A stretch of 64,000 bases of DNA from Flaccisagitta enflata. Taxonomy: Eukaryota. Every line of letters begins with the position of its first letter. The first letter of the stretch is position 1. Below the pieces are notes generated by a model that saw only the letters and a program-made list of their open reading frames with translations, had not been told where the DNA came from and did no database searches. Location: the NCBI GenBank assembly GCA_965153355.1, contig OZ231126.1, forward strand, positions 6,510,001 through 6,574,000. The letters are read 5' to 3'. Both the position numbers and the translations under genes were made by a program. Below are positions 25-60,528 of this stretch, in pieces.

Positions 25-288
25 TTGCCGCGACATATGTGGTCTGTTGAGAGTTGGTCGTGTATTACCCTTAACCCCCCTTCTTCTCTACCCCCCACCC
101 CCTTGCGGCGACATCTGTGGTGTGTTGATAGAGTAGGGCCTGCACGACTCTATTACCCCCCCCTTCCTCTCTACAAGCCCCCCCCCCCTTGCCGCGACAT
201 CTGTGTTCTATTGATAGAGTTTTGTGTGTCTTACCCCTAACCCCCCTCCTCTCTAGCCCCTTCCCCCCCTTTGCCGCGACATCTGTGG
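25..288. repeat. C-rich ~70-80 bp minisatellite, left part
   Basis: Repeated core TTGCCGCGACATCTGTG(G/T)T..GTTGATAGAGTT..TATTACCCC with poly-C tracts; resumes at 1713. Confidence 0.9.
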
Positions 289-2680: not shown

Positions 2681-3691
2681 GCCACCAAACTCATGATAAT
2701 GATAGTCACAACTATTTCTGTGATGCCATACGCCATCACACAGCGCCACCAAACTCATGATATTGATTGTCACAACTATCTCTGTGACGCCATACGCCAT
2801 CACACAGCGCCACCAAACTCATGATAATGATTGTCACATATGTTTTTGTGATGCCATACAGCATCACACAGCGCCACCAAACTAATGGTTATAATTGTCA
2901 CAACCATTTTTGTGACGTCATACGCCATCACACAGCGCCACCAAACTCATGATAATGATTGTCACAACTATTTCTGTGACGCCATACGCCATCACACAGC
3001 GCCACCAAACTCATGATAATGATTGTCACAACTATTTCTGTGACGCCATACGCCATCACACAGCGCCACCAAACTCATGATAATGATTGTCACAACTATT
3101 TCTGTGACGCCATACGCCATCACACAGCGCCACCAAACTCATGATAATGATTGTCACAACTATTTCTGTGACGCCATACGCCATCACACAGCGCCACCAA
3201 ACTAATGATAATGATTGTCACAACTATTTCTGTGACGTCATACGCCATCAAACAGCGCCACCCAACTCATGGTAATAATTGTCACAACTATTTCTGTAAC
3301 GCCATACGCCATCAAACAGCGCCACCAAACTCATGATAATGACTGTCACAACTATTTCTGTGACGCCATACGCCATCACACAGCGCCACCAAACTCATGA
3401 TAATGGTTGTCACTACTATTTCTTTGACGCCATACGCCATCACACAGCGCCACCAAACTCATGATAATGATTGTCACAACTATTTCTGTGACGTCATACG
3501 CCATCAAACAGCGCCACCCAACTCATGGTAATAATTGTCACAACCAGTTTTGTGACGTCATACGCACTCTCACAGCGCCACTGAACTCATGATAATAATT
3601 GTCACGACTATTTTTGTGACGCCATACGCCATCTCACAGCGCCACCAAACTCATGATAATAACTGTCACAACTATTTTTGTGATGTCATAC
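2681..3691. repeat. 64-bp minisatellite (~16 copies), resumes 4396-4548
   Basis: Unit GCCACCAAACTCATGATAATGATTGTCACAACTATTTCTGTGACGCCATACGCCATCACACAGC (period 3001->3065); internal GTCACA/TGTGAC hairpin. Confidence 0.95.
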
Positions 3692-4395
3692 GTCGAGGTG
3701 CAAATGAAGATAAAATTTCGGTTTCAGTCTCTTTTCATAACAATATTCATGATTATCTTATAATTTTTTTTAATGAAATTTGTAATTTTGTTGTTTGATA
3801 TCATTTCATTAGGAAAAGAAACCCTTGTATAATAAAGGTATTGCTTTTTTTTATTGACAAAGACAAGAAAGAATTACTGAAAATAATAGATTCCTCAAAA
3901 ATAGTCGTGCAAAAATTCAAAATCTGTGAAGGGAAAATTTTAAGTCTTGAACATATTGAACCATTATGCATTTCTGAGAACATGGCCCTTATCTTATATG
4001 TTCTTAGAATGAGGCTAGGTTTTTGAAAATGCAAAATTTTATAATTAGAGAGAGTCTTAGAATTTTCCCTGAGACAAGTCAAGTTGTAAAAATAAATTTT
4101 TTTTGGATTTCCTTCTTTTTAGTTGCGGACACGCAACTCTATAAGAGGCTTTGTCCGTCCGTCCATCCGTCCGCCCGTCCGTCCGTCCGTCCGTTGGTTG
4201 GTTGGTCCATGGACACGAGTCGAAAAGTGAGGAAACAAGTGTTTTAGATGTTTTTTGTGCATGTGAATGGGGGACTTGCAAAACAATATAACATGACAAT
4301 TATATTCATTGATGAAAAAAGTCTAAATAAGTAAAATTTAAAATATTGAAAAAATGTTTTGACTCCTCTAATTTGGTCTTCGTTTGCACCTTGAC
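3692..4395. mobile_element. TIR element (MITE) with 4-bp TSD ATAC, interrupting the 64-bp array; contains a HINE fragment at ~4121-4260
   Basis: Left GTCGAGGTGCAAATGAAGA, right TCTTCGTTTGCACCTTGAC (imperfect TIRs); ATAC on both flanks; array resumes in phase. Confidence 0.8.
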
Positions 4396-22761: not shown

Positions 22762-22794
22762 TTTTTTTCCAAAAGGATTCTTGTAACTATGCAC

Positions 22795-23766
22795 TGTGTC
22801 TTTGGAAGAAAGGAAACGACCGACAATGCAACTGTGTCTAAGGAAGGAAAGAAAAGGCCGACAATACATTGTGTCTAAGGAAGGAAAGAAAAGGCTGACA
22901 ATAGATTGTGTTTAAGGAAGGGAAGAAAACGCTGACAATAGATTGTGTCTAAAGAAGGGAAGAAAACGTTGACAATAGATTGTGTCTAAGGAAAGATTGA
23001 AAAGGCTGACAATAGATTGTGTCTAAGGAAGGAATGAAAAGGCTGACAAAAGATTGTGTCTAACTCTAAGGAAGGGAAGAAAACGCTGACAATAGATTGT
23101 GTCTAAGGAAGGAAAGAAAAGGCTGACAATAGATTGTGTCTAAGGAAGGAAAGAAAAGGCTGACAATAGATTGTGTCTAAGGAAGGAATGAAAAGGCTGA
23201 CAATAGATTGTGTCTAAGGAAGGGAAGAAAACGCTGACAATAGATTGTGTCTAAGGAAAGATTGAAAAGGCTGACAATAGATTGTGTCTAAGGAAGGAAT
23301 GAAAAGGCTGACAACAGATTGTGTCTAAGGGAAGAAAACGCTGACAATAGATTGTGTCTAAGGAAGGAAAAAAAAGGCTGACAATAGATTGTGTCTAAGG
23401 AAAGATTGAAAAGGCTGACAATAGATTGTGTCTTAGGAAGGAAAGAAAAGGCTGACAATAGATTGTGTCTAAGGAAGGGAAGAAAACGCTGACAATAGAT
23501 TGTGTCTAAGGAAGGAAAGAAAAGGCTGACAATAGATTGTGTCTAAGGAAGGAAAGAAAAGGCTGACAATCGATTGTGTCTAAGGAAAGATTGAATAGGC
23601 TGACAATAGATTGTGTCTTAGGAAGGAAAGAAAAGGCTGACAATAGATTGTGTCTAAGTAAGGGAAGAAAACGCTGACAATAGAATGTGTCCAAGGAAGG
23701 AAAGAAAAGGCTGACAATAGATTGTGTCTAAGGAAGGAAAGAAAAGGCTGACAATAGATTGTGTCT
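22795..23766. repeat. 37-bp minisatellite (~26 copies)
   Basis: AAGGAAGGAAAGAAAAGGCTGACAATAGATTGTGTCT with a few recurring variants. Confidence 0.95.
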
Positions 23767-24736
23767 ATTCCATCAGACTACTGCCGTACTTGATCCAGCC
23801 GAAAATGGCAGTGCAGATTCTAGACTACAAAGGATAAAGCAAGAGTGGAAGCAGGGATTGGAGTTATGGGGTAGGGCCTCTAAAGGTTCGGGAGGAGGTC
23901 ATGGCGCAGATTCTAGCCTACTGTGGCTAAAGCAAGAGTGGAAGTAGGGATTGGAGTTATGGGGGAGGGACTAAAAAGGTTCGGGGAGGAGACTCAAATT
24001 CTATTTGGTGGGTGGTGAGAAAGAGGTAGGAGTCACTATAGTTAAGGTTTTCAAATTAACTGATTATCAATTAACAAACTAAAAATTTCGTTAGTTAACT
24101 AGCTAAAATAGTTTCACCTTATAAAAGGCAGAAATTACGGAAAATTGTCATCATTTTGACACAATTTTTTAATGTATCAATAATTTCAGTATGGATTTTT
24201 CTGTTTGAGGTTAAAGATCCTCAAGTTTCCATGTTTCTCTGTGGCAATCCAAATATTCTTTTCTTAATGCCAAAAAAATCTACAAAAAATCATGTCATTT
24301 TAAGGAAAAACAGGTGAATTCTCCTCATTTTTCCACAAAAACCATTATCTGTTAAACCTAGTTGATTTCTCATATTTAACTATAGGGGTTTTCAGAATTT
24401 TAACTAGTTTACTAGCTAGTTAAGGTTAACTATTGCAAGTCCTAGAAAGAGGGTTGGGTTGGGAGCCGGGAGGTAGAAAAGGCAGGTGATGATAGGAGAA
24501 GGAAACACGACACGGTAAGAGGGGAGAAGAAGACAGTGGGGTGGAAGTAGAGTGACAACGGGGTAGGAGGGGGGAAGACAACGGGGTGGGGGAAGAGGGC
24601 GGGGAAGAGGACGGGTTAGGAGAGGGGGGGGGGAGAGGCCACGGGGTAGGAGAGGGGGGAAGAGGCCACGGGGTGCCGTCAATTGAATTAAGTAAGAGAG
24701 AAAGGCGTTAATGGCCATTCGATTAAAAGTCGCAAA

Positions 24737-25115: not shown

Positions 25116-25502
25116 CAAGGCCGGATAAACGGCCCCATTAGCCAAATGTGGTTAGGCAAGGGTAGACAACCAGACAGACATTTAATGATTCAAAAAACAA
25201 CGGACAGACCAACAGACAGACGGACAACAAGACAGAGCAGGCTGAAGAGTCGCGTGCATGAGACTAAGCAAATAAACAAGTGAAGCAGGGTCACAATATC
25301 GTTTTGGACAGGTGGGCAGGGGCATACAACCCCCATCCATTCCCTCATCAACCCCATACTCACTCACATACAGCGACAATCATAACTACAGCGTCATAAA
25401 TGAGCGTTTTTACACTTTCTGACTTGATCACCACGGACAGATTGACGGACGGACGGACAAACAGATGGACAAAGCCTCTTATAGAGTTGCGCGTCCGCAA
25501 CT
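25116..25502 (-). mobile_element. Two adjacent HINE-like copies
   Basis: CAAGGCCGGATAAACGGC..GAGTCGCGTGCATGAGACTAA and CAAGTGAAGCAGGGTCAC..TATAGAGTTGCGCGTCCGCAACTAAAA. Confidence 0.7.
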
Positions 25503-26796: not shown

Positions 26797-27442
26797 ATGC
26801 TTTTCCACACGTGTCTTTATAATAATCATCTCCAAACCAAACCTCACTTTTTGCAACTACATTTCATCCATTTCATATCTCCATGCTTTTCCAAGCGTCT
26901 CTTTCATTATCATCTCCCAAAACCAAAATGGGTACAACTGACCAAACTTTACTCTTTGCGATTACTTTTCATCAGTTTCTTATCTCCGCGTTTTTCCAAG
27001 CATCTCTTACATTATCATCTCCAAAAACCAAAATGGGTACAACTGACCAAACTTTACTCTTTGCGACTACTTTTCATCTGTTTCTTATCTCCGCGCTTTT
27101 CCAAGCGTGCCTTTCATTATCATCTCCAAAAACCAAAATGGGTACAACTGATCAAACTTTACTCTTTGCAACTACTCTCCATCCGTTTCTTATCTCCGCG
27201 CTTTTCCAAGCGTGTCTTTCATTATCATCTCCAACAACCAAAATGGGTACAACTGATCAAACTTTACTCTTTGCGACTACTTTTCATCCGTTTCTTATCT
27301 CCGCGCTTTTCCAAGCGTGCCTTTCATTATCATCTCCAAAAACCAAAATGGGTACAACTGACCAAACTTTACTCTTTGCGACTACTTTTCATCCGTTTCT
27401 TATCTCCACGTTTTTCCAAGCGTGTCTTTCATAATCATCTCC
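26797..27442. repeat. 108-bp minisatellite (~6 copies)
   Basis: CATCTCCAAAAACCAAAATGGGTACAACTGACCAAACTTTACTCTTTGCG... ; 36-aa periodicity in the ORF track. Confidence 0.9.
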
Positions 27443-30136: not shown

Positions 30137-30343
30137 CTAGACTCTCTCCCACATTCGAATTCCACTCATGATAACAGCAGAGTAACTAAGAGAACTTGAA
30201 TCCAAGACACTAATGCCCAAACACTTAAAAGACCCTTTCACAGTCTCAGCAACATCGCAATATTTGCTCTGCGTCAACCTTTCAAAATGTCGTCCTGACA
30301 TGTCTTCACATAAGATGGTCCAAGCGGCGTTTTCATCACAAAC
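30137..30343 (-). CDS. Last exon of the secreted discoidin/F5-8 type C-like protein gene (VCDENAAWTILCEDMSG...FKCLGISVL...IMSGIRMWERV*)
   Basis: Acceptor CTCTCTCAG before 30343, phase 0 matches the upstream donor, 69 codons ending TAG at 30139-30137. Confidence 0.85.
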   Translation of the reverse strand, partial: VCDENAAWTILCEDMSGRHFERLTQSKYCDVAETVKGSFKCLGISVLDSSSLSYSAVIMSGIRMWERV

Positions 30344-30399
30344 CTGAGAGAGTAATGAAGTGAATGGTCAATAAGATTGCTGCGATGATGGAAACGGAA

Positions 30400-30630
30400 A
30401 CAACAACAACAACAAACACCACAACAACAAACACCACAACAACAAAAATGACAATGACAACAACAACCACAACCACAACAACGACAACAACAATGACAAC
30501 AATGACGACAACAACAACAATGACAACAACAACAATAATGACAATAATGACAACAATGACAACAATGACAACAATGACAACAATGACAACAATGACAACA
30601 ATGACAACAATGACAACAATGACAACAACC
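30400..30630. repeat. Intronic (ACAACAATG)n/(ACA)n repeat
   Basis: Lies between donor 30636 and acceptor 30344; produces the spurious CCH-rich ORF tail. Confidence 0.9.
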
Positions 30631-30636
30631 AAATAC

Positions 30637-30944
30637 CTCGTCGTTGGTGCCGATGAACTGCCACTTGGTGGCGCCGCACCAGTAGCCATTGTTGCCACAG
30701 TGGTTGGTCTGACGTGGACGGAAAGAGACGCGTCCGGGTGAAATCGCCGTCTTGAATTCGTACCAAATGAGATGAGGGAATGGCACCCCATAACCACCAG
30801 CTCCGTTCTTATCCTGGCCACTGCTCCACATCTTGCCCGGTGAATGCAAGAAAGCATTCGAAGGTTGATATGTGGAGCTCATGTCATAGCGTGAAGATGC
30901 ATCAGCGTGTCCGCCAATGAATTCGACTTGCTTCAGCACCTTGT
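30637..30944 (-). CDS. Internal exon of the discoidin/F5-8 type C-like protein (KVLKQVEFIGGHADASSRY...PSNAF...WSS...PFPHLIWYEF...VSFRPRQ...ATKWQFIGTNDE)
   Basis: (CT)n-CATAG acceptor, GAG|GTATTT donor, 308 nt phase 1->0; motif order ASS / P.NAF / W.S / P..IWY.F / RPR / W.F.G.ND / WT matches the galactose-binding-like fold pattern (recognised by eye). Confidence 0.85.
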
Positions 30945-31325
30945 CTATGAGAGAGAGAGAGGGTACTTCAGGGTACATCAGGGTACTTTAGGATACTTAG
31001 ATTACTCTAGCTACTTATGAAACTCTCTGGTATTTTTGGGTATTTTTGGGTATTTTGGGTAATTTTGGGTACTTTTGGGTACAATACTCTATCGAATCGT
31101 ACCAATATCGTATCGATACATTGAGCAATACGTATTGCACGGCCTTGCACTATATGAGCTGAGCGACTCAAGGAATGCAAACGTCTTATGTTGGCAAAAA
31201 AGCAAATTGTATTTCTTTTAAGTGTTCATAGATGTCCCCGTGATTGTTTCTTCAAGAACTTGCAATGATTTAAAAAAGATCATCCAAAAATTAGCCCCCT
31301 CCTCATCTTCCTCACTCCGCCTTAC

Positions 31326-37332: not shown

Positions 37333-37837
37333 ATTGCGGACACGCAACTCTATAAGAGGCTTTGTCCGTCTGTCCATTCGTTGGTCCGTCGGTAATGAAT
37401 GAGTCCAAAAGTGGAAAAACAAGCGTTTTCGAAGCTTTTGTGTATGTCTCTGTGTTGCCCACCCGTCTGCAACGATATTGTGACCCCGCGTCACTTGTTT
37501 TACATCAAGATTACTCGAATACAAGAAAGTCCCGCAGATTATTCTGACTGATAACGACTTGACGGAAGATTGAAAAAAATGCTTTTTGATTAACCTTAAA
37601 AAAAAACAAGGCCGGATACACGCCGATACACAGCTACCCCAGTTGCGTGCGGGTGGGCAGGGGCCATAATTAAGTTCAGTGGAACATTTGGGCAGGATCA
37701 ATAAGGCCAAAACCCCCATTAACGCCGAAAAAGTAAAGTGTGACGGACGGACGTATGTACGGACGGACGTAAGTACGGACAGACGGACCGACGGATGGAC
37801 CGACAAAACGGGGTGGAGAGTCGCGTAGCACGCGACT
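37333..37837. mobile_element. Two HINE-like copies in opposite orientation (37333-37498 +, 37607-37837 -)
   Basis: TTGCGGACACGCAA hairpin ... GTGACCCCGCGTCACTTG; and the reverse complement of the 22553 element. Confidence 0.8.
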
Positions 37838-38534
37838 AAAAAATCAACCTTAAAAACGTTTGTGTCTCCCGGTTTCTATGATACTTCTTCGTAACCAAAC
37901 TGGAACAACAATCCTCAGTCGAAAATCACCCTTTAGCTTAGTTGTTTATACCCACTATGATGAATTAGACTATAGTCTGACCGCCTTATTTTTGTAAGTT
38001 TTTCATAGAATAGAATAAAATCTTGAGAAAAACAAAGTATGATAACACTTCAGGACTGGTTAACTGTCACTCCCGGAGCCTCCCTCCATTTTGCTGGGTT
38101 TTGACTTTACCTGGATCTATGTGCACAGGCCTGTCTTGGAGGCCAAAATCCAAGGCTGAATATCCCAAAACCTGGTCCAATGTTCTGAATCCTAGCTTTC
38201 AAGACCCAAATCGTGGCCCTGAGGTCCAGATTTTGGCCTCTGAGACCCAGATTATGGCTTTCGAATTCCGAGACCCAGATTCTGGCCTACATCAAGGTCC
38301 CAGTTTGAATCAGAGATGCGTTATAAAAAAGATAAAGCACTTTATGAAACTTTTTTTATGGAAGATTTTCCTCCTATCAATCTCATCTTTCAGAGGAAAT
38401 TAGGCATCAAAGTGGAGAGATTAGAGAGTTACAGCTTTAGTTTCTTACGGCAGAAAACGGAAATGACTGCAGCTAAACCCAGCAATAATCAATGTAAAAA
38501 AAAATTGTCTCTTACCATTTACGACAGAGGTATA

Positions 38535-39293
38535 CACCGTCTTTAAATCGAAATGGCAAATAGTAAACCTTTGTAGCTCTAAAACTACTAGCCCAAAAGC
38601 CTTCAAATTTTCAGTGAATGTCGGTAACAACTGACCATTTTGTCATGTCCAAACTCGGATTTTAATACTGAATAGTTTGGGGTCAGTAAAACAAACAAGA
38701 TATGCCCAATTTTCAGGGCTGAATTTTTTTTCTTGCTTTATTTGAAAAGACTTGTCTTTATCAATATACAGATGTCAAAAAAATTGAGCTAGAACTCCGG
38801 GGTTGGTCTCAAATGATAGGAAATTTTTCAGAGATTAAACATTTACCTAAAAAATTGAAAAAAGTTGGATATAGATTGAGGTTATCATTGGTTTTTAGCA
38901 ATCATTGCTGAAATCCAAACTGTCAATCATTTGAAAATCATTCAAATCTTCATAAATACAATAAAAAAATGAAATTTTCAAGCAGAACTTTTTTTCATGA
39001 TTCGTAACTCTTCATTTAAGACCAACCCCAGGGTTCAAGTTTGCTTATTCAGGAAAAAAGCATTAAAAGAAAAAAGATTCTTCAAAGTATAGCTGGGACA
39101 AATTTTTTTTCCATTTAATTGATAGCTTTTCAATGCTTTAATGACCCTCAACCTATTCAGTTATAAAATCTGAGTTTTGGCATGACAAAATGGTCAGTTG
39201 TTACTAACATTCACTGAAAATTTGAAGGCTTTTAGGCTAGAAGTTATGGAGCAACAAAGGTTTACAATTTGCCATTTCGATTCAAAGACGGTG
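38535..39293. mobile_element. 759-bp MITE with ~130-bp TIRs and TA TSD; left-truncated second copy at 53427-54142
   Basis: TA|CACCGTCTTTAAATCGAAATGGCAAAT ... ATTTGCCATTTCGATTCAAAGACGGTG|TA; interior colinear with 53427-54142. Confidence 0.9.
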
Positions 39294-39358
39294 TATTTCG
39301 ACTATTTCAACGAATATTTCAAAAATATGTCTTACACTCTGTGGGACTCCTGTACAGT

Positions 39359-42371: not shown

Positions 42372-43305
42372 TGTCGAGCCGGCCCGTTTTGTCAAGCTGG
42401 CTTATTTTGTCGAGTTGGCCCATTTCGTCGAGTTGGCCCATTTTGTCGAGTTGGCCCATTTTGTCGAGTTGGCCCATTTTGTCGAGTTGGCCCATTTTGT
42501 CGAGTTGGCCCATTTTGTCGAGTTGGCCCATTTTGTCGAGTTGGCCCATTTTGTCGAGTTGGCCCATTTTGTCGAGTTGGCCCATTTTGTCAAGTCGGCC
42601 CATTTTGTCAAGTCGGCCCATTTTGTCGAGGCGGCCCGTTTTGTCGAGTCGGCCCGTCTTGTCGAGTCGGCCCGTTTTGTTGAGTCAGCCCGTTTTGTCG
42701 AGTTGTCCTGTTTTGTCAAGTTGGCCCATTTTGTCGAGTCGGCCCATTTTGTCGAGTCGGCCCATTTTGTCGAGTCGGCCCGTTTTGTCGAGTCGGCCTG
42801 TTTTGTCGAGTCGGCCCATTTTGTCGAGTAGGCCCGTTTTGTCAAGTCGGCCCGTTTTGTCGAGTCGGCCCGTTTTGTCGAGTCGGCCCGTTTTGTCGAG
42901 TCGGCCCGTTTTGTCGAGTCGGCCCGTTTTGTCGAGTCGGCCAGTTTTGTTGAGTCGGCCAGTTTTGTCAAGTCTCCCTGTTTTGTCGAGTCGGCCCGTT
43001 TTGTCGAGTCGGCCCGTTTTGTCGAGTCGGCCAGTTTTGTCGAGTCGGCCCATTTTGTCGAGTCGGCCCGTTTTGTCGAGTCGGCCCATTTTGTCGAGTC
43101 GGCCCGTTTTGTCAAGTCGGCCCATTTTGTCGAGTCGGTCCATTTTGTCAAGTCGGCCCATTTTGTCAAGAGGGCCGTTCTGTCAAGTTGGCCCGTTCTG
43201 TCGAGTCGGCCTGTTTTATCGAGTCGGCCCGTTTTCTCGAGTCAGCCCGTTTTGTAGAGTTGGCCCGTTTTCTCGAGTCGGCCCGTTTTGTCGAGTCGGC
43301 CCGTT
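42372..43305. repeat. 18-bp minisatellite (~52 copies)
   Basis: TTTTGTCGAGT(T/C)GGCCC(A/G); variants are ordered along the array. Confidence 0.95.
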
Positions 43306-43777
43306 TAACGGCACTAGCTTAGAAGGTGATAAAGACCTGTTGAACACAGGGGGCCTTTATTCTGTTTCTTTGTTCGCCCCCCTGCAAATCAATTCAGTAT
43401 AAAAGACAACGGTCAGAATGCTTGTAGCTTTGTAAACAGTCGAACCTTTCCTGCAGGATGGGATAGTCTAACAGAATGAAGGTATGAACGACATTCGCAT
43501 TAAAATCGTCAATGAGTTGGTCGACGCACTCGGTCTGAGCCTCTTTCTTGGAGCAGCTCCTCCATTTATTCATCCGTTAGAATCATCATTGCCAAGGCCT
43601 GGACCTATTTGATGCAACTCAAAACTGGATTTTGCATTCGCCAGTCTACTACCCGCTTTGTCCGTCCATTGGTCCGTTTGTTTACTTTTTTCTACTTTTT
43701 CGGCGTTCATGGTTGATCATTGCATCACTGCTCCTGCCAACTGCCAACTGCCCCGGGTGTTCTTTAGAGAAACTGAA

Positions 43778-44250: not shown

Positions 44251-46401
44251 CGTCCACGCACTTTTTTTTTAATGAATGTCATTTTTTAAAAAAAATTCTT
44301 GAAAAAAAAATGAAATTGAAAAGAGATAGAGATAGCTACTACGAAAATTAGCATTTTGAAGCCTTGATGTTCTTATAAAAAAGAGTGAACAAGAGGTCGT
44401 GTCCATTGGTTGGTCAGTCGGTCATGCAAGTGAAATGCGCAAAATGGCCGATTCGTGATTCATTCCTTTATTCATTTATTCACATTGTTCATTCACAAAT
44501 TCTTAATCAGTGAGGAGCATTCATTGGCATTTCTGAAAAAACATTGATAATCGGCGAAATTTCTTATGTGGAATTGAATTATTCTACAGCATTTTTTGGC
44601 CTAATCGGAGAAGCCGCTGCTGTTGTCATTCATTGACCAAACCGTACTATCCGCATCATGGATTTGATACCTATATATCTCTCTCACAAGCTTCACGTGT
44701 GAAATGCAGAGTTCAATACATGCGGAAGCCTTGTTTACTGATGGGGCTTTTTGTCAACAATATCGAGTTTTTCGCATGGGCTCATGCTAGTGGTGATGAG
44801 AAGAAGTTGACTCAGAAAACTGCTCTCTGAAGAAAGAGCTATCATGAAAAACAATGTACAGTATTTTGACTTGAGGACTGGAAATTGAGCTGATGGTCAG
44901 ATTTAAGAGAAAAATCAATTTTTTTATCGTCGTCGATCAAAAAGTTGGAAACAGTTGGATCCAAAAAAATGATAAATGGACTGAGGGGAGTCGAAAGAAA
45001 AAGCAATATAGATCTCAAAGCGTCGACCCTCGTCGGACGGTAACTACATAACGTCAAACATGAAATTTGTAAAGTACCAAAAGACATGGGAGAAACGATT
45101 TCTCGATTATACGGCAAGAATGAGCATCAAATACCGTCTCTGGAAAGGTACATGTTTGTACGTTTTGGTATCCACAGCCCTTATAACTAGACACGCTTTG
45201 TTTGGCAATTTTTTTGATGAAATTATGGGAGAGATGTAGGAACTAATTTTTGGCAAATTACGCTTACCAGCTATTGTAAAGAGTGTTTCCCGATGTTTTG
45301 GGCGCATTTTTGAAATTTCAGTTTTACCCTACGACTGATTCCACGAAATTGGCTCATGTTTTCAAAGTGTTGTGGTGATTTTTCAAGAAGTATTTGTCTT
45401 ACCACACTAGAAATAGAATTGCTTTTATTAGATGAACAGAATAAGTACTCTACTTCATAGCATTGTTTTCAACCAAATTACCTCCATAGGATTAAAACCG
45501 ACCAACGAAGAATGCAACCTATTTCAAGCTTTTTACAAAACAACTTTCGTTTGATGAAAATATTAGAAAAAAAATTCTAAACCAGTTTGAAAAATAACTT
45601 TGAAATGATGAAATGAACAGTTCATTTTTTTTGCTATTGCTACTAGGAGTATCATACTTGTTTGCTTCTCATGTTTAAACTAAAACAAGTGACGCGGGGT
45701 CACAGTATCGTCGCGGACAGGTGGGTAGGGGCATCCGACTCCTATCCACGCCCCAAACCCAACTCCATACACAAACGTGCAAAGAAAGAATCCAAAACGC
45801 TCATTTTTCCACTTCTACTCTCAATCACCACGGACCGACACACGTAGATCGGAGAGTGTACCATAACAGGTCAAAAATATAAGCCAGTGCCTAGAGATGA
45901 CAGCTTTGGCATAAAAATGTTCTTAAGTATGTGTAGATCACACCTATATGGGGTTTTGCCTGCGTCATGATTCATCTAGGGACATTTTTTTGCTCTTGAA
46001 CTCAGTAGGTTCAACATTTTGGAGGCTCTGAATGGACAAGATTTTTTTCATCTGAGATTGGAATTTTGCGAGTTTTTTTTTAATAGGTCCTACAAATTTA
46101 GGAGCAGGCTTACCAAATTTTACACATGGCGTATTCAATCAATCCTGAACCTTTGCTAAAGATTTGGCATCCTCCCTCTTATCATAAGTACCATTTTTCA
46201 TTTCTAGAATAGTACCATATGAAATGGAAAAAACATTTTTTGCCGCATTTTAATTTCAGAGAAGTAGTTAACTTCAAGGGGCAAAAAGAGGCTTTGGATT
46301 AGCTATGACGCAGGTAAAACCATATGTTTTCTTGCTCAGGGTAAGCAACTGTACTAGTTTCAGCCGTTTGTTTAAGTCAAAAGTGCCAGCATAATTTTTT
46401 T

Positions 46402-53426: not shown

Positions 53427-54142
53427 AAACTACTAGCCCAAAAGCCTTCAGATTTTCAGTGAATGTTGGCAACAACTGACCATTTTGTCATGTCCAAACT
53501 CAGATTTTAATACTGAATAGTTTGGCGTCAGTAAAACAAACAAAATATGCCTAATTTTCGAGGCTGAATCTTTTTTTTTCTTGCTTTATTTGAGAAGACT
53601 TGTCTTTATCAATATACAGATGTCAAAAAAATTGAGCTAACACTCCGGGGTTAGCCTCAAATGATAGGAAATTTTTCAGAGATTACACATTTACGTAAAA
53701 AATTAGAAATAGTTGGATATGAATTGAGGTTATCATTGGTTTTTGGCAATCTTTGCTAAAATCCAGACTGTCAATCATTAGAAAATCATTCAAATCTTCA
53801 TAAATACAATAGAATAATGAAATTTTCAAGCAGAATTTATATTCATGATTTGTAACTATTCATTTAAGACCAACCCCAGGGTTCAAGCTTGCTTAATCAG
53901 GAAAAAAGCAATAAAAAAAAAAAATTCTTCTAAGTATAGCTGGGACAAATTGATTTTTTCCATAAAATTGATAGCATTTCAATGCTTTAATGACCCCCAG
54001 CCTATTCAGTTACAAAATCTGAGTTTTGGCATGACAAAATGGTCAGTTGTTACCAACATTCACTCAAAATTTGAAGGCTTTTGGGCTAGTAGTTTTGGAG
54101 CTACAAAGGTTTACTATTTGCCATTTTGATTTAAAGACGGTG
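53427..54142. mobile_element. Left-truncated copy of the 38535 MITE
   Basis: Colinear high similarity; intact right TIR ...TTTAAAGACGGTG|TA. Confidence 0.85.
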
Positions 54143-54419
54143 TACATTGGTTAGAATCGGAATTTCATTGCTGGCAGATTCGTAAAAGCGGGGTTCAAAT
54201 GTGATTCAAAAGCGCTCAGCGCTGAGAAATTAAACAGAAACAAACCAAGTCAATCAGCTGCGGCAATTGCATTGCTAGCTTTGCAACAGATGGACAGACC
54301 AAATGTATTGAGTCAGACGCAAATCAACAAGAACAAGTGACGCGGGGTCACAATATTGTTGCGGACGGGTGGGCAGGGGCGTGTAACCCTCATCCACACC
54401 TTCACCCACCCTACACACA

Positions 54420-56620
54420 GTCGCATTAAGCTTGACCTCGATTCTATCCTCTAAGGGTATGGTTTCTTAACAATGTTACCCTCGGGTGATTTGTTGAATT
54501 TTGGTTAAAGAAGTAACAATCATTGCCCTGACTACTTTTGGTAAGCAGTTTGCTTTTGGGTTAGATTGAGAAGGAATGGTTTTCAGATTCTGTTTTATGG
54601 AAAACTAGGAGTGGTGCGCGTATTAAGTAGTCAGTGAGGGTTCACAAGGCCCTCTTCCGTTTATTTCAGTTTGGGTATAGTGAGGGATATTGTTCCACTT
54701 TTCATACTACTCAGTACCTTGGATTGGAATGTCCGGCGGTCGCATTAAGCTTGACCTCGATTCTATCCTCTAAGGGTATGGTTTCTTAACAATGTTACCC
54801 TCGGGTGATTTGTTGAATTTTGGTTAAAGAAGTAACAATCATTGCCCTGACTACTTTTGGTAAGCAGTTTGCTTTTGGGTTAGATTGAGAAGGAATGGTT
54901 TTCAGATTCTGTTTTATGGAAAACTAGGAGTGGTGCGCGTATTAACTAGTCAGTGAGGGTTCACAAGGCCCTCTTCCGTTTATTTCAGTTTGGGTATAGT
55001 GAGGGATATTGTTCCACTTTTCATACTACTCAGTACCTTGGATTGGAATGTCCGGCGGTCGCATTAAGCTTGACCTCGATTCTATCCTCTAAGGGTATGG
55101 TTTCTTAACAATGTTACCCTCGGGTGATTTGTTGAATTTTGGTTAAAAAGTAACAATCATTGCCCTGACTACTTTTGGTAAGCAGTTTGCTTTTGGGTTA
55201 GATTGAGAAGGAATGTTTTTCAGATTCTGTTTTATGGAAAACTAGGAGTGGTGCGCGTATTAACTAGTCAGTGAGGGTTCACAAGGCCCTCTTCCGTTTA
55301 TTTCAGTTTGGGTATAGTGAGGGATATTGTTCCACTTTTCATACTACTCAGTGCCTTGGATTGGAATGTCCGGCGGTCGCATTAAGCTTGACCTCGATTC
55401 TATCCTCTAAGGGTATGGTTTCTTAACAATGTTACCCTCGGGTGATTTGTTGAATTTTGGTTAAAGAAGTAACAATCATTGCCCTAACTACTTTTGGTAA
55501 GCAGTTTGCTTTTGGGTTAGATTGAGAAGGAATGGTTTTCAGATTCTGTTTTATGGAAAATTAGGAGTGGTGCGCGTATTAACTAGTCAGTGAGGGTTCA
55601 CAAAGCCCTCTTCCGTTTATTTCAGTTTGGGTATAGTGAGGGATATTGTTCCACTTTTCATACTACTCAGTACCTTGGATTGGAATGTCCGGCGGTCGCA
55701 TTAAGCTTGACCTCGATTCTATCCTCTAAGGGTATGGTTTCTTAACAATGTTACCCTCGGATGATTTGTTGAATTTTGGTTAAAGAAGTAACAATCATTG
55801 CCCTGACTACTTTTGGTAAGCAGTTTGCTTTTGGGTTAGATTGAGAAGGAATGGTTTTCAGATTCTGTTTTATGGAAAACTAGGAGTGGTGCGCGTATTA
55901 ACTAGTCAGTGAGGGTTCACAAGGCCCTCTTCCGTTTATTTCAGTTTGGGTATAGTGAGGGATATTGTTCCACTTTTCATACTACTCAGTACCTTGGATT
56001 GGAATGTCCGGCGGTCGCATTAAGCTTGACCTCGATTCTATCCTCTAAGGGTATGGTTTCTTAACAATGTTACCCTCGGGTGATTTGTTGAATTTTGGTT
56101 AAAGAAGTAACAATCATTGCCCTGACTACTTTTGGTAAGCAGTTTGCTTTTGGGTTAGATTGAGAAGGAATGGTTTTCAGATTCTGTTTTATGGAAAACT
56201 AGGAGTGGTGCGCGTATTAACTAGTCAGTGAGGGTTCACAAGGCTCTCTTCCGTTTATTTCAGTTTGGGTATAGTGAGGGATATTGTTCCACTTTTCATA
56301 CTACTCAGTGCCTTGGATTGGAATGTCCGGCGGTCGCATTAAGCTTGACCTCGATTCTATCCTCTAAGGGTATGGTTTCTTAACAATGTTACCCTCGGAT
56401 GATTTGTTGAATTTTGGTTAAAGAAGTAACAATCATTGCCCCAACTACTTTTGGTAAGCAGTTTGCTTTTGGGTTAGATTGAGAAGGAATGGTTTTCAGA
56501 TTCTGTTTTATGGAAAACTAGGAGTGGTGCGCGTATTAACTAGTCAGTGAGGGTTCACAAGGCCCTCTTCCGTTTATTTCAGTTTGGGTATAGTGAGGGA
56601 TATTGTTCCACTTTTCATAC
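54420..56620 (+). repeat. 319-bp tandem array, 6.9 near-identical copies; candidate twister retrozyme
   Basis: GTCGCATTAAGCTTGACC starts at 54420, 54739, 55058, 55376, 55695, 56014, 56333; only scattered single-base differences. Confidence 0.97.
54916..54979 (+). ncRNA. Candidate type-P5 twister ribozyme (copy 2 of 7; others start at 54597, 55234, 55553, 55872, 56191, 56510)
   Basis: AUGGAA(P5)-AA-CUAG(P2')-GAGUG-GUGCGCGUAU(P1)-U|AA-CUAG(P2)-UC-AGU-GAGGG(P4)-U-UCACAAGG(L4)-CCCUC(P4')-UUCCGU(P5'); pseudoknots GU/AC and UC/GG can both pair. Manual folding only. Confidence 0.7.
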
Positions 56621-56928
56621 AAATACAAAGACAAAGACAACTGCAGCATCAAAAATGCGCATTCCCACACTTTTCAACTCGATCATGACGGACGTAAGGA
56701 TGGACGGATGGAAAGATGGACGGACGGAATGGGGGATAGACGGAGAGAAGAAAGAGTGAAAGTAATGTTGAAAGAAGGAAAAGAGAGGAATTTGAAAGAT
56801 AACAAGAAATAGGTATTGAAAAGTAACAAGGCTGGATAAACGGCTACACCAGTCGCTTTCAGGTGGGCAGGGGAAGTATTTCAGTGAGTAGAGCATTTGA
56901 TCAGTAACGGTATGGCGACAGACGGAAG

Positions 56929-57524: not shown

Positions 57525-59349
57525 AAAAATCCCATAAAATGTAGTATCCTAGCCGCGTTAAACAAAAAAGTACACTTTTTCACTTTTTTTAACACAAAAT
57601 ACGCACAAAGATGGACCTGAAACCCATATTACCCCAGAAAACCCCATGAATTTTTTTTCACAATTTGATAGCCCTATTAGGGTAGTTTCCAGGACCACTG
57701 TCAAAATACTCGGACTCGGGCGGGCTTTTAGTCGTTTTTGACCAGATTTGCCAGAAAATCAAAAATGACAAAAATGACAAAAATCAAATTTGAATATCTA
57801 CAACCAAAATTTAGCTGACGCCATAAATTTTTAGGGGAACACCTACCCTGACATGGTGTTTCTAAAACCAACAGTTGAAATTTTTTTTTAATATGCATAC
57901 CAGCCCAACTGACCTATCACTTAAAAATTGAAAAAACATATTTTTTTTTGGCTGTTTTGCTCTTATTGTCTCCAAATTTTGCATGAGGGTTGTCACTGAC
58001 CCTAGAAACTATTTGCATATGCTATAGCTGATCGAATCGATGATACTCGCCAAAATACTATACACAAAAAAAACATGATTTTGGGTGAAATTATCCAAAA
58101 TTTTTGGAAAAGTCAAAAATGGTCAATTATCAGTTCAGTTATTTCCATATTGTAAACAAAACAAAAAAACAAAAAAATTCATCTCAAATTTTTTTGTTTA
58201 CAGCACTTTTTAGGTGAAAAAAGCTTATTTTTAGCATTTTTTTGGTAAAAAATTGTTTATGCAGCTTCAAAAATCTCCATTAATCCTGGAAATGTGTGGC
58301 AATAGTCTGGATATACACATTTTTACCTGTAACAACAAGTTTTTTTTACATATTTTTTAGATAAGAGCTTAAAAATAGCCTAAAAATAGCAAAATATTGC
58401 TTTTTTCAGCGTTTTTAAGTTTTTTCATGTTAATGAAGCATAAAAACTAAAAAAAAGTTCTAGAAATGTATAGTATTAGTCCGAGTATAAATACTTATGC
58501 CCTGAATAACCAGTTATTCATGATAGTTTTGGGTTTAAAGCCTAAAAATAGCTTAAGAAGAACAAAATATGGCTTTTTTTAGCATTTTTGAGCAAAAAAT
58601 AGTTTGTGCAGCTGTATTTATCCAGAAAAAATCCTTATAATGTGTAGTTATAGTTTGAGTAAAGATACTTTTACCCAGAACAACCAGTTGTTGGGGATTT
58701 TTTAAAGTTTAAAGATCAAAAATGCTGAAAAAACCATATTTTATCATTTCTAAGCTATTTTTAAGCTCTAATTTGTATGTTATTTCAAAAAACATGTTGT
58801 GAAGGGTTAAAATGTGTATATTCAAACTATTGCCTCACATTTTCAGTATTAATTAGAATTTTCAAAGCTCAAAAAAAAATTTTAAGCCAAAAAAAATGTT
58901 AAAAATAACTTTTTTCTACCAAGAGAGTTATATAAATGAAAAAATTTAAGATAAATTTATTTGTTTTTTTGTTTTTTTAGTATCCCACATGACACAGTGG
59001 CAAAAACGGTCTTTTCATACCTCTTGGGGGCGTATCCAGAGAGGTGTGATAATCCAATACAATTAATTTTCATTATTGGAAAAAACTAGTCTATGTAGCT
59101 AGTGTTACAATTTTGTCGCGGATGAATGGGCAAGGGCTTCCAAATTCCCCCCCCCCCCACTCATACACCTCTTCAACAATTGTTTTTCCACTTTCCGACT
59201 TACTCACAAACCAGCAGACTGACTGACTAACAGATGAACCAACGGACGGACACAGCCTCTTATAGATTCGTGAATCCGCGACAAGAAACGTACAAGTTTG
59301 AAAATAGAATGGAATGGATCAGGTAGTAGGTGAATGAGACAAAAGTAAG

Positions 59350-60528
59350 AAAGTGTGAAAATAGTCATATTTACGGCATTTTACGGCAAAAAATGACACT
59401 GAATGACAACAGCTTCACTCGATTTTTGGTAAGAATTTGTCCCAGATCCAAACTATTAGTGTTTGACCCTTTGCTACCTATTAGAGCTGTTTTAAAACAT
59501 TTACAACTTAAGAAAGTGTGAAAATAGCCATTTTTACGGCATTTTACGGCGAAAAATGACACTGAATGACAACGGCTCCACTCAATTTTTGGCAAGAGTA
59601 TGTCCCAGAGCCAAACCATCAGTGTTTGACCCTTTGCCACCCATTACAGCTGTTTTAAAACATTAAAGACCTAAAAAGTGTGAAAATAGCCATTTTTACG
59701 GCAAGAAATGACACTACATGACAACGGGTCCACTCAATATTTGGCATAAGTATGTCCCAGAGCCAAACCATTTGTTTGACCCTTGGCCGCCTATTACAGC
59801 TGCTTTAAAACATGAACAACTTAAAAAAAGTGTGAAAATAGCCATTTTTACGGCATTTTACGTCAAAAAAATGACACTGAACGTCAATGGCTTCACTCGA
59901 TTTTTGGTAAGAATTTGTCTCAGAGCCAAACTATTATTGTTTGACCCTTTGCTTCCTATTAGAGCTGTTTTAAAACATTTAAGACTAAAAAAAGTGTGAA
60001 AATAACCATTTTTACGGCATTTTACGGCAAAAAATGACACTGAATGATGACAGCTCCACTCGATTTTTGGCAAGAGTATGTTCCAGAGCCAAACCATTAG
60101 TATTTGACCCTTTTCCACCTATTACAGCTGTTTTTAAACAATAACAACTTATGAAAGTGTGAAAATAGCCATTTTTACGGCATTTTACGGCAAAAGATGA
60201 CACTGAATGATGATGGCTCCACTCAATTTTTGGTAAGAGTATGTCCGAGCGCCAAACCATTAGTGTTTTACCCATTGCCACCTTATACAGCTGTTTTAAA
60301 ACAATAACGACCTAAAAAAGTGTGAAAATAGCCATTTTTACGGCTTTTTACGGCAAAAAAAGACGCTGAATGATGACGGTTTCACTCGATCTTTGGTATG
60401 AGTATATCTCAGAGCCACACAGTTACTGTATGACCGTTCGCCAACCATAACACCTTTTTTTTAACATCATCAACCTGAAAACTGGCAAAAATGTCATTAT
60501 TACGTAATTTTACGGCATTTTACGGCAC
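59350..60528. repeat. ~163-bp satellite (~7 diverged copies)
   Basis: AAGTGTGAAAATA recurs at 59351, 59514, 59676, 59828, 59992, 60155, 60318. Confidence 0.92.

Follow-up and report, generated by a model that had tools for sequence, protein, structure and literature searches.

Twister permutation types are laid out in PMC5408937, and the available text of PMC6154101 gives P5 for only 1% of annotated twisters. Type-P5 twisters run in the order P5, AA(A), P2′, GA plus a PK2 strand, a capped P1, UAA cut after its U, P2, a PK1 strand, P4/L4 and P5. The parts of PMC11662667 that were available describe the roles of A1 and A2 in cleavage and report that, across ~2,600 natural twisters, neither the length nor the stability of P1 had an effect on cleavage. 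Wobbles in PK1/PK2 and changes at L4 position 1 were also tolerated there. Cleavage at an almost wild-type rate is described for a twister without P1 (PMC5408937, in part), and the dispensability of P1 is also stated in the text at hand of PMC6154101. The corresponding portion of PMC8501958 calls P1-less cleavage inefficient and holds that P1 composition modulates activity. In the mini-twister, from which P1 was deleted, and in the T-variants of Schistosoma mansoni, where it is altered or absent, P1 makes at most a small contribution to folding; the cut is expected one nucleotide past whatever stands before UAA (excerpts of PMC5408937 and PMC8501958). These are type-P1 molecules whose 5′ strand is missing or comes from flanking DNA at the 5′ end of a retrotransposon.

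Double hammerheads, as in newt satellite 2, avocado sunblotch viroid and Penelope-like elements, occur in tandem copies. Their cleavage-adjacent helix is too short singly, and a palindromic loop joins two copies (PMC6765202, PMC7761336, both in part). Metazoan non-LTR retrozymes and ribozyme satellites are very abundant, AT-rich tandem repeats with units of a few hundred bp, each unit with one small self-cleaving motif, and they are found in RNA libraries (available sections of PMC7761336). Both carry type I hammerheads; the non-LTR retrozymes have units of about 150–400 bp and yield circular RNA. A literature search found no case of a twister as the processing element of an abundant eukaryotic tandem satellite, although papers beyond its scope may describe one.

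A twister-like motif in a 319-bp satellite

The window analyzed here is a 64,000-nucleotide stretch of Flaccisagitta enflata DNA (contig OZ231126.1). It contains a tandem array whose units each carry a small motif in the order of a type-P5 twister. The elements below are those of unit 2, mapped by hand against the Rfam twister-P1 consensus line and with a descriptor of our own.

54420–56620, plus strand: tandem array of a 319-bp unit, 6.9 copies, 98% alike (TRF and sequence)
54916–54921, plus strand: P5 5′ strand AUGGAA, pairing with 54974–54979 (hand mapping; probability 0.79–1.0 in the isolated 66-nt core)
54924–54927, plus strand: P2′ CUAG, preceded by AA (54922–54923) and pairing with P2 at 54946–54949 (hand mapping against the Rfam twister-P1 consensus; descriptor)
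54928–54932, plus strand: GAGUG (consensus GAGGG), its first G standing where the general base is expected, the A placed to make the A.A contact and GUG supplying the PK2 (T1) strand
54933–54942, plus strand: G-U-tolerant 10-nt palindrome GUGCGCGUAU replacing the P1 stem-loop (sequence, ViennaRNA; family variants 54933 G>A, 54935 G>A and 54942 U>G)
54943–54945, plus strand: U-1, A1 and A2, the UAA of the consensus, with the proposed scissile bond between 54943 and 54944
54946–54951, plus strand: P2 CUAG followed by the PK1 (T2) strand UC (hand mapping; descriptor)
54955–54973, plus strand: P4 GAGGG/CCCUC with loop L4 UUCACAAGG (ensemble probability 0.99–1.0)
54974–54979, plus strand: P5 3′ strand UUCCGU, pairing with 54916–54921 (hand mapping; probability as for the 5′ strand)
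54983–55026, plus strand: conserved stretch 3′ of the motif (summed contig depth highest in three of four runs)

By this hand fit and our own descriptor the motif looks like a type-P5 permuted twister, an assignment that Rfam does not support. The catalytic A1, A2 and G positions are filled as in type-P5 twisters, and the TAA before P2 (U54943, A54944, A54945, then CUAG) is kept in all seven units. PK2 pairs GUG at 54930–54932 with CAC at 54962–54964 through three Watson-Crick pairs; in its middle pair the consensus G-C is swapped for U-A by a change on both sides (G>U, and C>A in L4). PK1 pairs UC at 54950–54951 with GG at 54967–54968, as C-G and U.G. L4 reads as one extra U, CAC (PK2), AA and GG (PK1). 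Against the Rfam consensus, G UCCCAAGC C, it keeps eight of ten conserved letters with both adenines present, and the two altered letters are those whose pseudoknot partners also changed. The U-A and U.G pairs, the additional U, a P1 of three weak pairs and the eukaryotic satellite host all set the motif apart from type-P5 twisters.

The reading preferred here, held at slightly less than even odds (about 0.45), is that each unit carries a P1-poor, divergent, circularly permuted type-P5-like twister that cuts as a monomer. Once the satellite is transcribed, a core of about 64 nt (54916–54979) would fold locally through P5, P2, P4 and the two pseudoknots, and would cut between 54943 and 54944 without a partner. 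The 13 bases at 54933–54945 would be a vestigial P1 element followed by the cleavage site, the 10-nt stretch serving mainly as a linker from the PK2 strand to the scissile nucleotide. Its GCGCG-centered self-complementarity would permit pairing between units or separate molecules, catalysis being independent of such pairing. Transcription, cleavage and monomeric action are what we infer; what is observed comprises the fit to the consensus, the computed energies and the variants within the family. The fit includes UAA, a 4-bp P2, G-A after P2′, PK2, the A.A partners, PK1, a 5-bp P4, the second L4 adenine and a 6-bp P5, and it suggests a twister. By analogy with the twisters described above, in which P1 is dispensable and pseudoknot wobbles are tolerated, a motif of this kind may be active. 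Several points argue against this. Two of the ten conserved L4 letters differ and one letter is inserted, and the statement on inefficient P1-less cleavage (PMC8501958, in part) would apply here. In a nested-pair model, with pseudoknots outside its scope, the predicted probability of P2 is only 0.25 in the isolated core, and with 120-nt flanks those of P2 and P5 go to about 0.

As in the mini-twister and the S. mansoni T-variants, P1 would contribute little, if anything, to the fold of the satellite motif, and the expected cut lies one nucleotide past whatever precedes UAA. Unlike them, the motif lies within a tandem repeat and holds both “strands” of P1, closed into a 10-nt linker. At its two ends the array breaks off at unit positions 54739 (start) and 55026 (end), neither of which is the proposed cleavage site, a further difference. 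If the motif cleaves, a rare P5-permuted twister would be doing what has so far been described for hammerheads, namely processing an abundant eukaryotic tandem satellite.

Searches, chance expectation and family variation

Rfam twister models (clan CL00120) gave no match at the gathering score on the whole window and none at E<=10 on segments of 5 kb, 131 nt or 68 nt. Ribozymes of any other Rfam class, hammerhead included, were likewise not found in the window or in these three segments. The preliminary description had called the palindrome a twister P1; that label depends on the hand mapping and our descriptor and finds no confirmation in Rfam. One Rfam row alone overlaps the P4 region, an Ocean-VII hairpin at 9.5 bits, and was taken as chance. 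The consensus used for mapping came from a type-P1 twister in a viral contig (locus L002, 55.9 bits, under the gathering score of 67.2). A scan of viral contigs with consensus motifs, meant as a baseline of hairpin-capped twisters, gave 40 loci; P2 pairing failed in 39 of them, which marks these as chance matches. Rfam, run on six of the 40, found a twister in L002 only, and the baseline was dropped.

The relaxed form of the descriptor matches five of the seven units. Both missed units carry a mutation in P2 or PK1; in unit 4 a PK1 G has become A. In random Markov sequence the relaxed form finds 8.4e-6 sites per nt (about one per 62 kb) and the strict form 5.4e-7. For the strict form this amounts to 3.4e-4 per unit on both strands, an optimistic value since the descriptor was written after the motif had been seen. 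Elsewhere in the window a match of the chance type lies at 54027 on the minus strand.

Is the motif a ribozyme at all? It could be a chance or decayed twister likeness in an ordinary satellite or SINE-like repeat, with the CG-rich palindrome acting at the DNA level (protein binding, recombination) or having no function. We regard this as unlikely. The silence of Rfam, the expected frequency of relaxed matches together with the one at 54027, and a conserved block that reaches 55025, past the twister-like motif, all favor it. It sits poorly with the low chance of a strict match, with the compensated PK2 change and with the family variants below. If the motif does not cleave, the 10-mer would be merely a common type of palindrome in a satellite; if it does, Rfam models would be missing twisters with co-varied pseudoknot pairs.

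Family variation was read from contigs at least 80% alike to the repeat in four public runs, two RNA libraries among them. The table lists 40 of 81 variant rows. Among these listed rows, core variants occur only at 54933, 54935 and 54942 (P1), 54946 (the first P2 pair, below 1% in three of four runs), 54957 and 54971 (P4), 54960 (L4 position 1), and 54917 and 54978 (P5). None falls in G54928–G54932, U54943–A54945, PK1 or L4 54961–54968, so that the listed variants spare the catalytic positions, and the changes in P4 and P5 would keep pairing. The P4 partners 54957 G>A and 54971 C>U have an equal depth of 7.27, from one contig each in run X17, and 54978 G>A (92–99% of depth) turns a U.G pair of P5 into U-A. 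This pattern is consistent with the monomeric twister. Within the window itself the core is not depleted of variants, which counts against it: four of the 10 variable sites across the six full units lie inside the core.

The palindrome in the putative place of P1

The 10-mer GTGCGCGTAT lies at 54933–54942, directly before the TAA at 54943–54945. It occurs seven times in the window, once per array unit, and not at all on the minus strand. As a hairpin it forms three pairs only (G-U, U-A, G-U) around a CGCG loop, at +3.6 kcal/mol; the minimum-free-energy state of the 10-mer in ViennaRNA is unfolded, and the ensemble probability of the P1 hairpin is 0.04. As a self-duplex all 10 positions are paired (four G-C, two A-U and four G-U), at −12.9 kcal/mol (ViennaRNA). 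The self-complementary tract is in fact 14 nt long, TGGTGCGCGTATTA at 54931–54944, and thus crosses the proposed cleavage site.

How much weight should the palindrome carry? Outside the array, 758 of 61,790 10-mers (1.2%) are self-complementary when G-U pairs are allowed, so the palindrome alone is unremarkable and also fits a repeat that is no ribozyme. Given a 3-bp stem, all that is needed in addition is a self-complementary 4-nt loop, with a chance of about (6/16)^2 = 0.14. The center of the palindrome is a GCGCG run, whose ability to pair with itself in several registers is trivial.

Pairing between units was modeled for a tandem dimer, a 637-nt two-unit transcript (54784–55420), with a nearest-neighbor model. 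The two 10-mers pair with each other at a predicted probability of 0.93–1.0. This pairing is worth about 11.8 kcal/mol (minimum free energy −181.3, against −169.5 with both kept unpaired). The preferred structure is a fully swapped rod, in which P2′ of unit A pairs with P2 of unit B, the P5 strands are exchanged and a 14-bp helix forms the center. The preliminary description thus stands on its structural points: a one-copy P1 limited to a few pairs, two of them G-U, a 10-mer fully self-complementary with G-U allowed, neighboring copies able to pair, and a hammerhead precedent for palindromic loops, the last supported by the available parts of PMC6765202 and PMC7761336. It had gone on to propose that the palindrome makes the twister cleave as a dimer, and here the pairing holds up while the function is weakened, as P1 is reported to be dispensable, the predicted 14-bp helix buries the site and the outer pair is often lost in the family.

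In such a dimer, P1 would need two copies to form, giving a helix of 10 bp (or 8 bp) in a strand-swapped “double twister,” and multimers would be cut while the monomer or circle is spared. This seems improbable. The contrast between hairpin and self-duplex energies is in its favor, as are the predicted swapped rod and its gain in energy. The likeness to double hammerheads, tandem copies with a short cleavage-adjacent helix and a palindromic loop, speaks by analogy for it. Solved twisters have P1 stacked on T1 (PMC6154101, in part), and a swapped P1 would be geometrically conceivable. Helix III is essential for catalysis in hammerheads, unlike P1 in twisters, which is reported to be dispensable. 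A twister monomer should accordingly cut as well, and transcription would have finished its core 319 nt before reaching the partner. The predicted 14-bp helix takes in U-1 and A1 together with two of the three bases of PK2 and would block the active fold. The trivial self-complementarity of GCGCG weighs in the same direction. Our literature search found no report of dimeric twister cleavage, although papers beyond its scope may exist. The sole mention of a twister dimer that was met, in the portion of PMC5408937 at hand, is a crystal artifact with a disordered cleavage site.

Family variants bear on this in both directions. In the central 8 nt, 54935 G>A is the sole variant among the rows listed, and it keeps the pairing. 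The outer pair, which adjoins the active site, is often lost through changes in its two members: at 54933 in 33–91% of summed depth in three of four runs (11% in X17), and at 54942 in 34–91% in all four, which argues against dimer dependence. A shifted 8-bp register then arises, a pattern that involves few positions. With the commonest variant (first G>A, last U>G) introduced in silico into both units, the 10-mers still pair in a register shifted by one at a predicted probability of about 0.8, and the extension to 14 bp is lost.

The same helix might instead act as a switch or dimerization site, hiding the scissile bond between units or between monomers and so slowing re-cleavage, stabilizing products or circles, or joining RNAs. 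The inclusion of U-1 and A1 in the 14-nt tract and the large predicted stability would suit this. It rests on a thermodynamic model without pseudoknots, the extension is gone in a common family variant, and we consider it very improbable. A double twister occurring in nature, within a retrozyme-like satellite built on twisters, with a palindromic linker for P1, a shared P1 of 8–10 bp and cutting confined to multimers, appears distinctly improbable. If true, it would mean that the dimer strategy of hammerheads was reinvented in a second ribozyme class. The palindrome offers a cheap and clean test of whether pairing between copies can regulate a ribozyme whose adjoining stem is dispensable.

The repeat family and its setting

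In contigs of the four public runs the repeat family is huge and very abundant, and six of the 20 runs that hold the 319-bp repeat are RNA libraries. The satellite is in both respects like metazoan retrozymes and ribozyme satellites, as it is in its AT-rich composition, its unit length and its tandem layout with one putative motif per unit. With the non-LTR retrozymes it shares size and tandem arrangement, but no hammerhead is found in it. Presence in RNA libraries need not imply transcription, as carried-over DNA of so abundant a repeat may be present. Contig joints that go back 319 nt are equally compatible with tandem DNA.

Depth over 54916–55014 is well above that of the flanks in all four runs, and 54916 is the point where many contigs join the repeat. 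These observations point to a module common to several repeat families, which would favor the monomeric twister. Many contigs leave the repeat at 55017–55026, the region in which the array of the window likewise stops. No second copy of the module was found outside the array within the window, and scanning metagenome contigs, prokaryote genomes and viral contigs for the motif gave no related locus. Contig ends near 54937–54945 in runs X12 and X17 were considered as a cleavage signal and rejected, since the variants 54933 and 54942 account for them.

Two further readings of the repeat were set aside. A viroid-like rod was rejected, as the fold of the circular 319-nt unit is not unusually stable (z = −0.95); in this the satellite differs from retrozymes, and the value is in keeping with an ordinary repeat. 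The P4 hairpin was also considered as part of a tRNA or SINE. ARAGORN found no tRNA gene in 54300–56700, which tells against a tRNA-like origin and, to that extent, against the SINE-like form of the non-ribozyme reading. A BLAST search of the flanks for target-site duplications yielded nothing beyond noise from microsatellites and, on the left, a dispersed repeat. Pfam found no family in six ORFs, and one ORF has 28 metagenome homologs.

Fit of the repeat unit to the twister consensus

A 319-bp unit is repeated in tandem between 54420 and 56620 (6.9 copies, 98% alike), and the self-complementary 10-mer GTGCGCGTAT occurs seven times, once in each unit and always directly followed by TAA. The copy in the second unit, with its TAA, lies at 54933-54945, and the letters reported in the preliminary description are correct in seven of seven units. 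The reference consensus was taken from the twister-P1 alignment obtained by cmscan for a phage locus (L002), and runs P1, UAA, P2, GC, an optional P3, P4 with the loop GUCCCAAGCC, gUAAA, P2', GAGGG and P1'. The L002 element (positions 39-90, minus strand, also seen in L003), on a phage contig from the motif scan, is a type-P1 twister without P3 and scores 55.9 bits, below the Rfam gathering score of 67.2. Taken as a P5-type permutation of this order, the unit can be matched to the consensus one element after another, as judged from its sequence.

Elements of the putative twister in the second unit
54916-21, P5, 5' strand, AUGGAA, pairing with UUCCGU at 54974-79
54922-23, linker, AA
54924-27, P2', CUAG
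54928-29, after P2', G and A, the general-base G and the A.A partner
54930-32, strand of pseudoknot PK2, GUG
54933-42, P1 position, the 10-mer
54943-45, proposed cleavage site, U|AA, cut between 54943 and 54944
54946-49, P2, CUAG
54950-51, strand of pseudoknot PK1, UC
54955-59 / 54969-73, P4, GAGGG / CCCUC
54960-68, L4, the loop closing P4, UUCACAAGG

The unit differs from the consensus in its middle PK2 pair, which is U-A and not G-C with both sides changed, in one PK1 pair, which is U.G, and in L4, which carries one additional U. According to the CHiTA study, twisters tolerate pseudoknot wobbles, an altered L4 position 1 and imperfections of every kind in P1, while A1, A2 and the general-base G are important (PMC11662667); the unit keeps these three. 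Rfam searches reported no twister, whether at gathering score on the window or with the limit relaxed to E ≤ 10 on segments of 5 kb, 131 nt and 68 nt. Covariance models ignore pseudoknots and score co-varied pseudoknot letters as plain mismatches, which is a plausible explanation of this miss. The P4 hairpin (54955-54973) gave a weak partial match of 9.5 bits to Rfam Ocean-VII, a marine-metagenome RNA of unknown function, which was taken as chance.

We favor, at a probability of about 45%, a divergent twister of the P5-permuted form whose P1 is vestigial and which cuts as a monomer, the palindrome being a by-product or accessory. Could the motif instead be a chance look-alike and no ribozyme at all? 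A descriptor for hairpin-capped twisters matches five of the seven units, the two misses bearing a P2 or PK1 mutation, and also one poor site at 54027 on the other strand. Run on Markov-random sequence totaling 18.6 Mb, the descriptor gave 156 relaxed sites, and 10 of these also passed stricter limits (P4 ≥ 4 bp, adjoining P5 ≥ 5 bp); the resulting strict chance rate of 5.4e-7 per nt, equal to 3.4e-4 for a single unit with both strands counted, is too favorable to the motif because the descriptor, of our own design, was written with the motif already known. Contig collections from metagenomes, viruses and prokaryotes yielded no relatives. A chance resemblance is rated less likely than the favored reading, though it is the foremost competitor.

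The palindrome and pairing between neighboring units

As proposed earlier, P1 is weak within one monomer: the 10-mer as a lone RNA is predicted unfolded, its sole possible hairpin being G-U, U-A and G-U around CGCG at +3.6 kcal/mol. The accompanying claim that the 10-mer is self-complementary when G-U is allowed also holds, with a computed 10-pair duplex between two copies of -12.9 kcal/mol. The self-complementary tract is really 14 nt long (54931-54944) and takes in the proposed scissile step. As a sequence feature taken alone, the palindrome is not beyond chance, since self-complementarity with G-U allowed is found in 758 of the 61,790 10-mers that lie outside the array (1.2%) and, given a 3-bp stem, is demanded of the 4-nt loop only. 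It is also trivial that the GCGCG run self-pairs in several registers.

The preliminary description proposed cleavage as a dimer through the P1 palindromes of adjacent repeats. In a folding model of a 637-nt transcript with two cores (54784-55420), which ignores pseudoknots and transcription order, the two 10-mers pair with a probability of 0.93-1.0, and forcing both to be unpaired costs 11.8 kcal/mol. The predicted minimum (-181.3 kcal/mol) is completely swapped: P2' of each unit pairs with P2 of the other, the P5 strands are exchanged, each P4 stays local, and a 14-bp central helix joins 54931-54944 to 55249-55262. For the 66-nt core on its own, the predicted pair probabilities are 0.79-1.0 for P5 and P4, 0.25 for P2 and 0.04 for the P1 hairpin; once 120-nt flanks are added, competing pairings displace P2 and P5 in the model.

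It is established that hammerheads whose helix III is short, as in the newt satellite, a viroid and Penelope-like elements, can act as dimers by way of a palindromic loop (PMC6765202, PMC7761336); the preliminary description had stated this for tandem satellites and Penelope-like elements. P1 stacks on T1 (PK2) and P2 in solved twister structures (PMC6154101), so a P1 common to two molecules is conceivable. However, twister P1 is described as "dispensable," forms without it cleaving a single nucleoside at a near wild-type rate (PMC5408937, PMC6154101), and its length, stability and imperfections as all without effect across ~2,600 natural twisters (PMC11662667); a Schistosoma study, in partial disagreement, reports inefficient cleavage without P1 and activity modulated by its composition (PMC8501958). 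In the literature searched, no tandem DNA satellite carried a twister and no twister was described as cleaving as a dimer; the paper that first described twisters, outside the coverage of the search, may mention repeats. The dimer idea is thermodynamically sound and physically plausible in the model, but its function is opposed by what is known of twister P1, and dimer-dependent or dimer-enhanced cleavage appears improbable. In the modeled 14-bp helix U-1, A1 and two bases of PK2 are paired, contrary to what an active site would require; a palindrome acting as an inhibitory or dimerizing switch, with which this would agree, seems more improbable still.

Variation of the repeat family in public runs

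The stretch is contained in 20 public runs, nearly all marine or seawater metagenomes; six are RNA libraries, which may contain DNA of the repeat and so are no proof of transcription. One unit was aligned to contigs of two DNA and two RNA-library runs (X1, X2, X12 and X17) at a likeness of at least 80%. The repeat is extremely abundant, X1 holding 19,587 contigs of it, and its summed word depth runs into the millions. In each of the four runs, depth over 54916-55014 clearly exceeds that of the flanks and many contigs enter at 54916 or exit at 55017-55026, so the module is common to several repeat families; as contigs, these data do not give molecule ends.

Among the 40 variants listed of 81, between which linkage is unreadable and whose remainder may differ, none falls in G54928-G54932, U54943-A54945, the PK1 bases or L4 54961-54968. 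In the core, the listed variants are 54917 in P5, where 54978 G>A (92-99%) also turns the window's U.G into U-A; 54946, the first P2 pair (<1% in three runs, 12% in X17); 54957 and 54971, which pair with each other in P4 (in X17 at an identical depth of 7.27, in one contig each); 54960, L4 position 1 (40-59%); and 54933, 54935 and 54942 in the 10-mer. On these 40, the core pattern is as would be expected for a constrained twister. Against constraint, four of the 10 variable sites in the window's six full units lie in the core.

By summed depth, the first base of the 10-mer is A for G in 33% (X1), 55% (X2), 91% (X12) and 11% (X17), and the last is G for U in 36, 63, 91 and 34%, respectively. 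In three runs the two shares are close, which suggests that the changes are linked; the pair adjoining the active site would then become a non-pair and the hairpin be left with two pairs. The central 8 nt remain self-complementary in the family, 54935 G>A preserving pairing, and when the two substitutions are introduced in silico into each unit, the units still pair with each other at a probability of ~0.8, the register shifted by one.

Array borders and surroundings

In unit numbering the array starts at 54739 (window 54420) and ends at 55026 (window 56620), where an A-rich run follows; a 31-nt segment (55027-55057) is found between internal copies only. The proposed cleavage site coincides with neither end. 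The segment just 3' of the motif (54983-55026, corresponding to 56577-56620 at the end of the array) has the top summed contig depth in three of four runs, and at 55017-55026 hundreds of contigs exit the repeat into varied A/T-rich sequence. These features resemble a defined 3' terminus, such as a mobile unit of SINE or retrozyme type would have.

The window is ~60% A+T with 180 rows of micro- and minisatellites, and looks eukaryotic. Five further tandem arrays in it gave no Rfam family at gathering score.

Other tandem arrays
59346-60517, 163 bp x 7.3
26836-27442, 105 bp x 5.8
2681-3692, 64 bp x 15.8
22789-23767, 37/74 bp x 26
42372-43306, 18 bp x 52

An ORF on the minus strand (30274-30978) has no Pfam family; its residues 1-118 have 28 homologs among unnamed metagenome proteins (53-82% identity, best E = 4e-37) and the remainder consists of low-complexity CCH and V/I runs. 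The ORF may be an exon of a genuine gene from an organism thinly represented in reference databases. The left flank of the array (54332-54419) is a dispersed repeat also present at 25275-25362, 37456-37499 and 45678-45732 (80-95% alike), and the flank's first 145 nt (54000-54145) recur at 39152-39295, 38533-38675 and 53427-53520.
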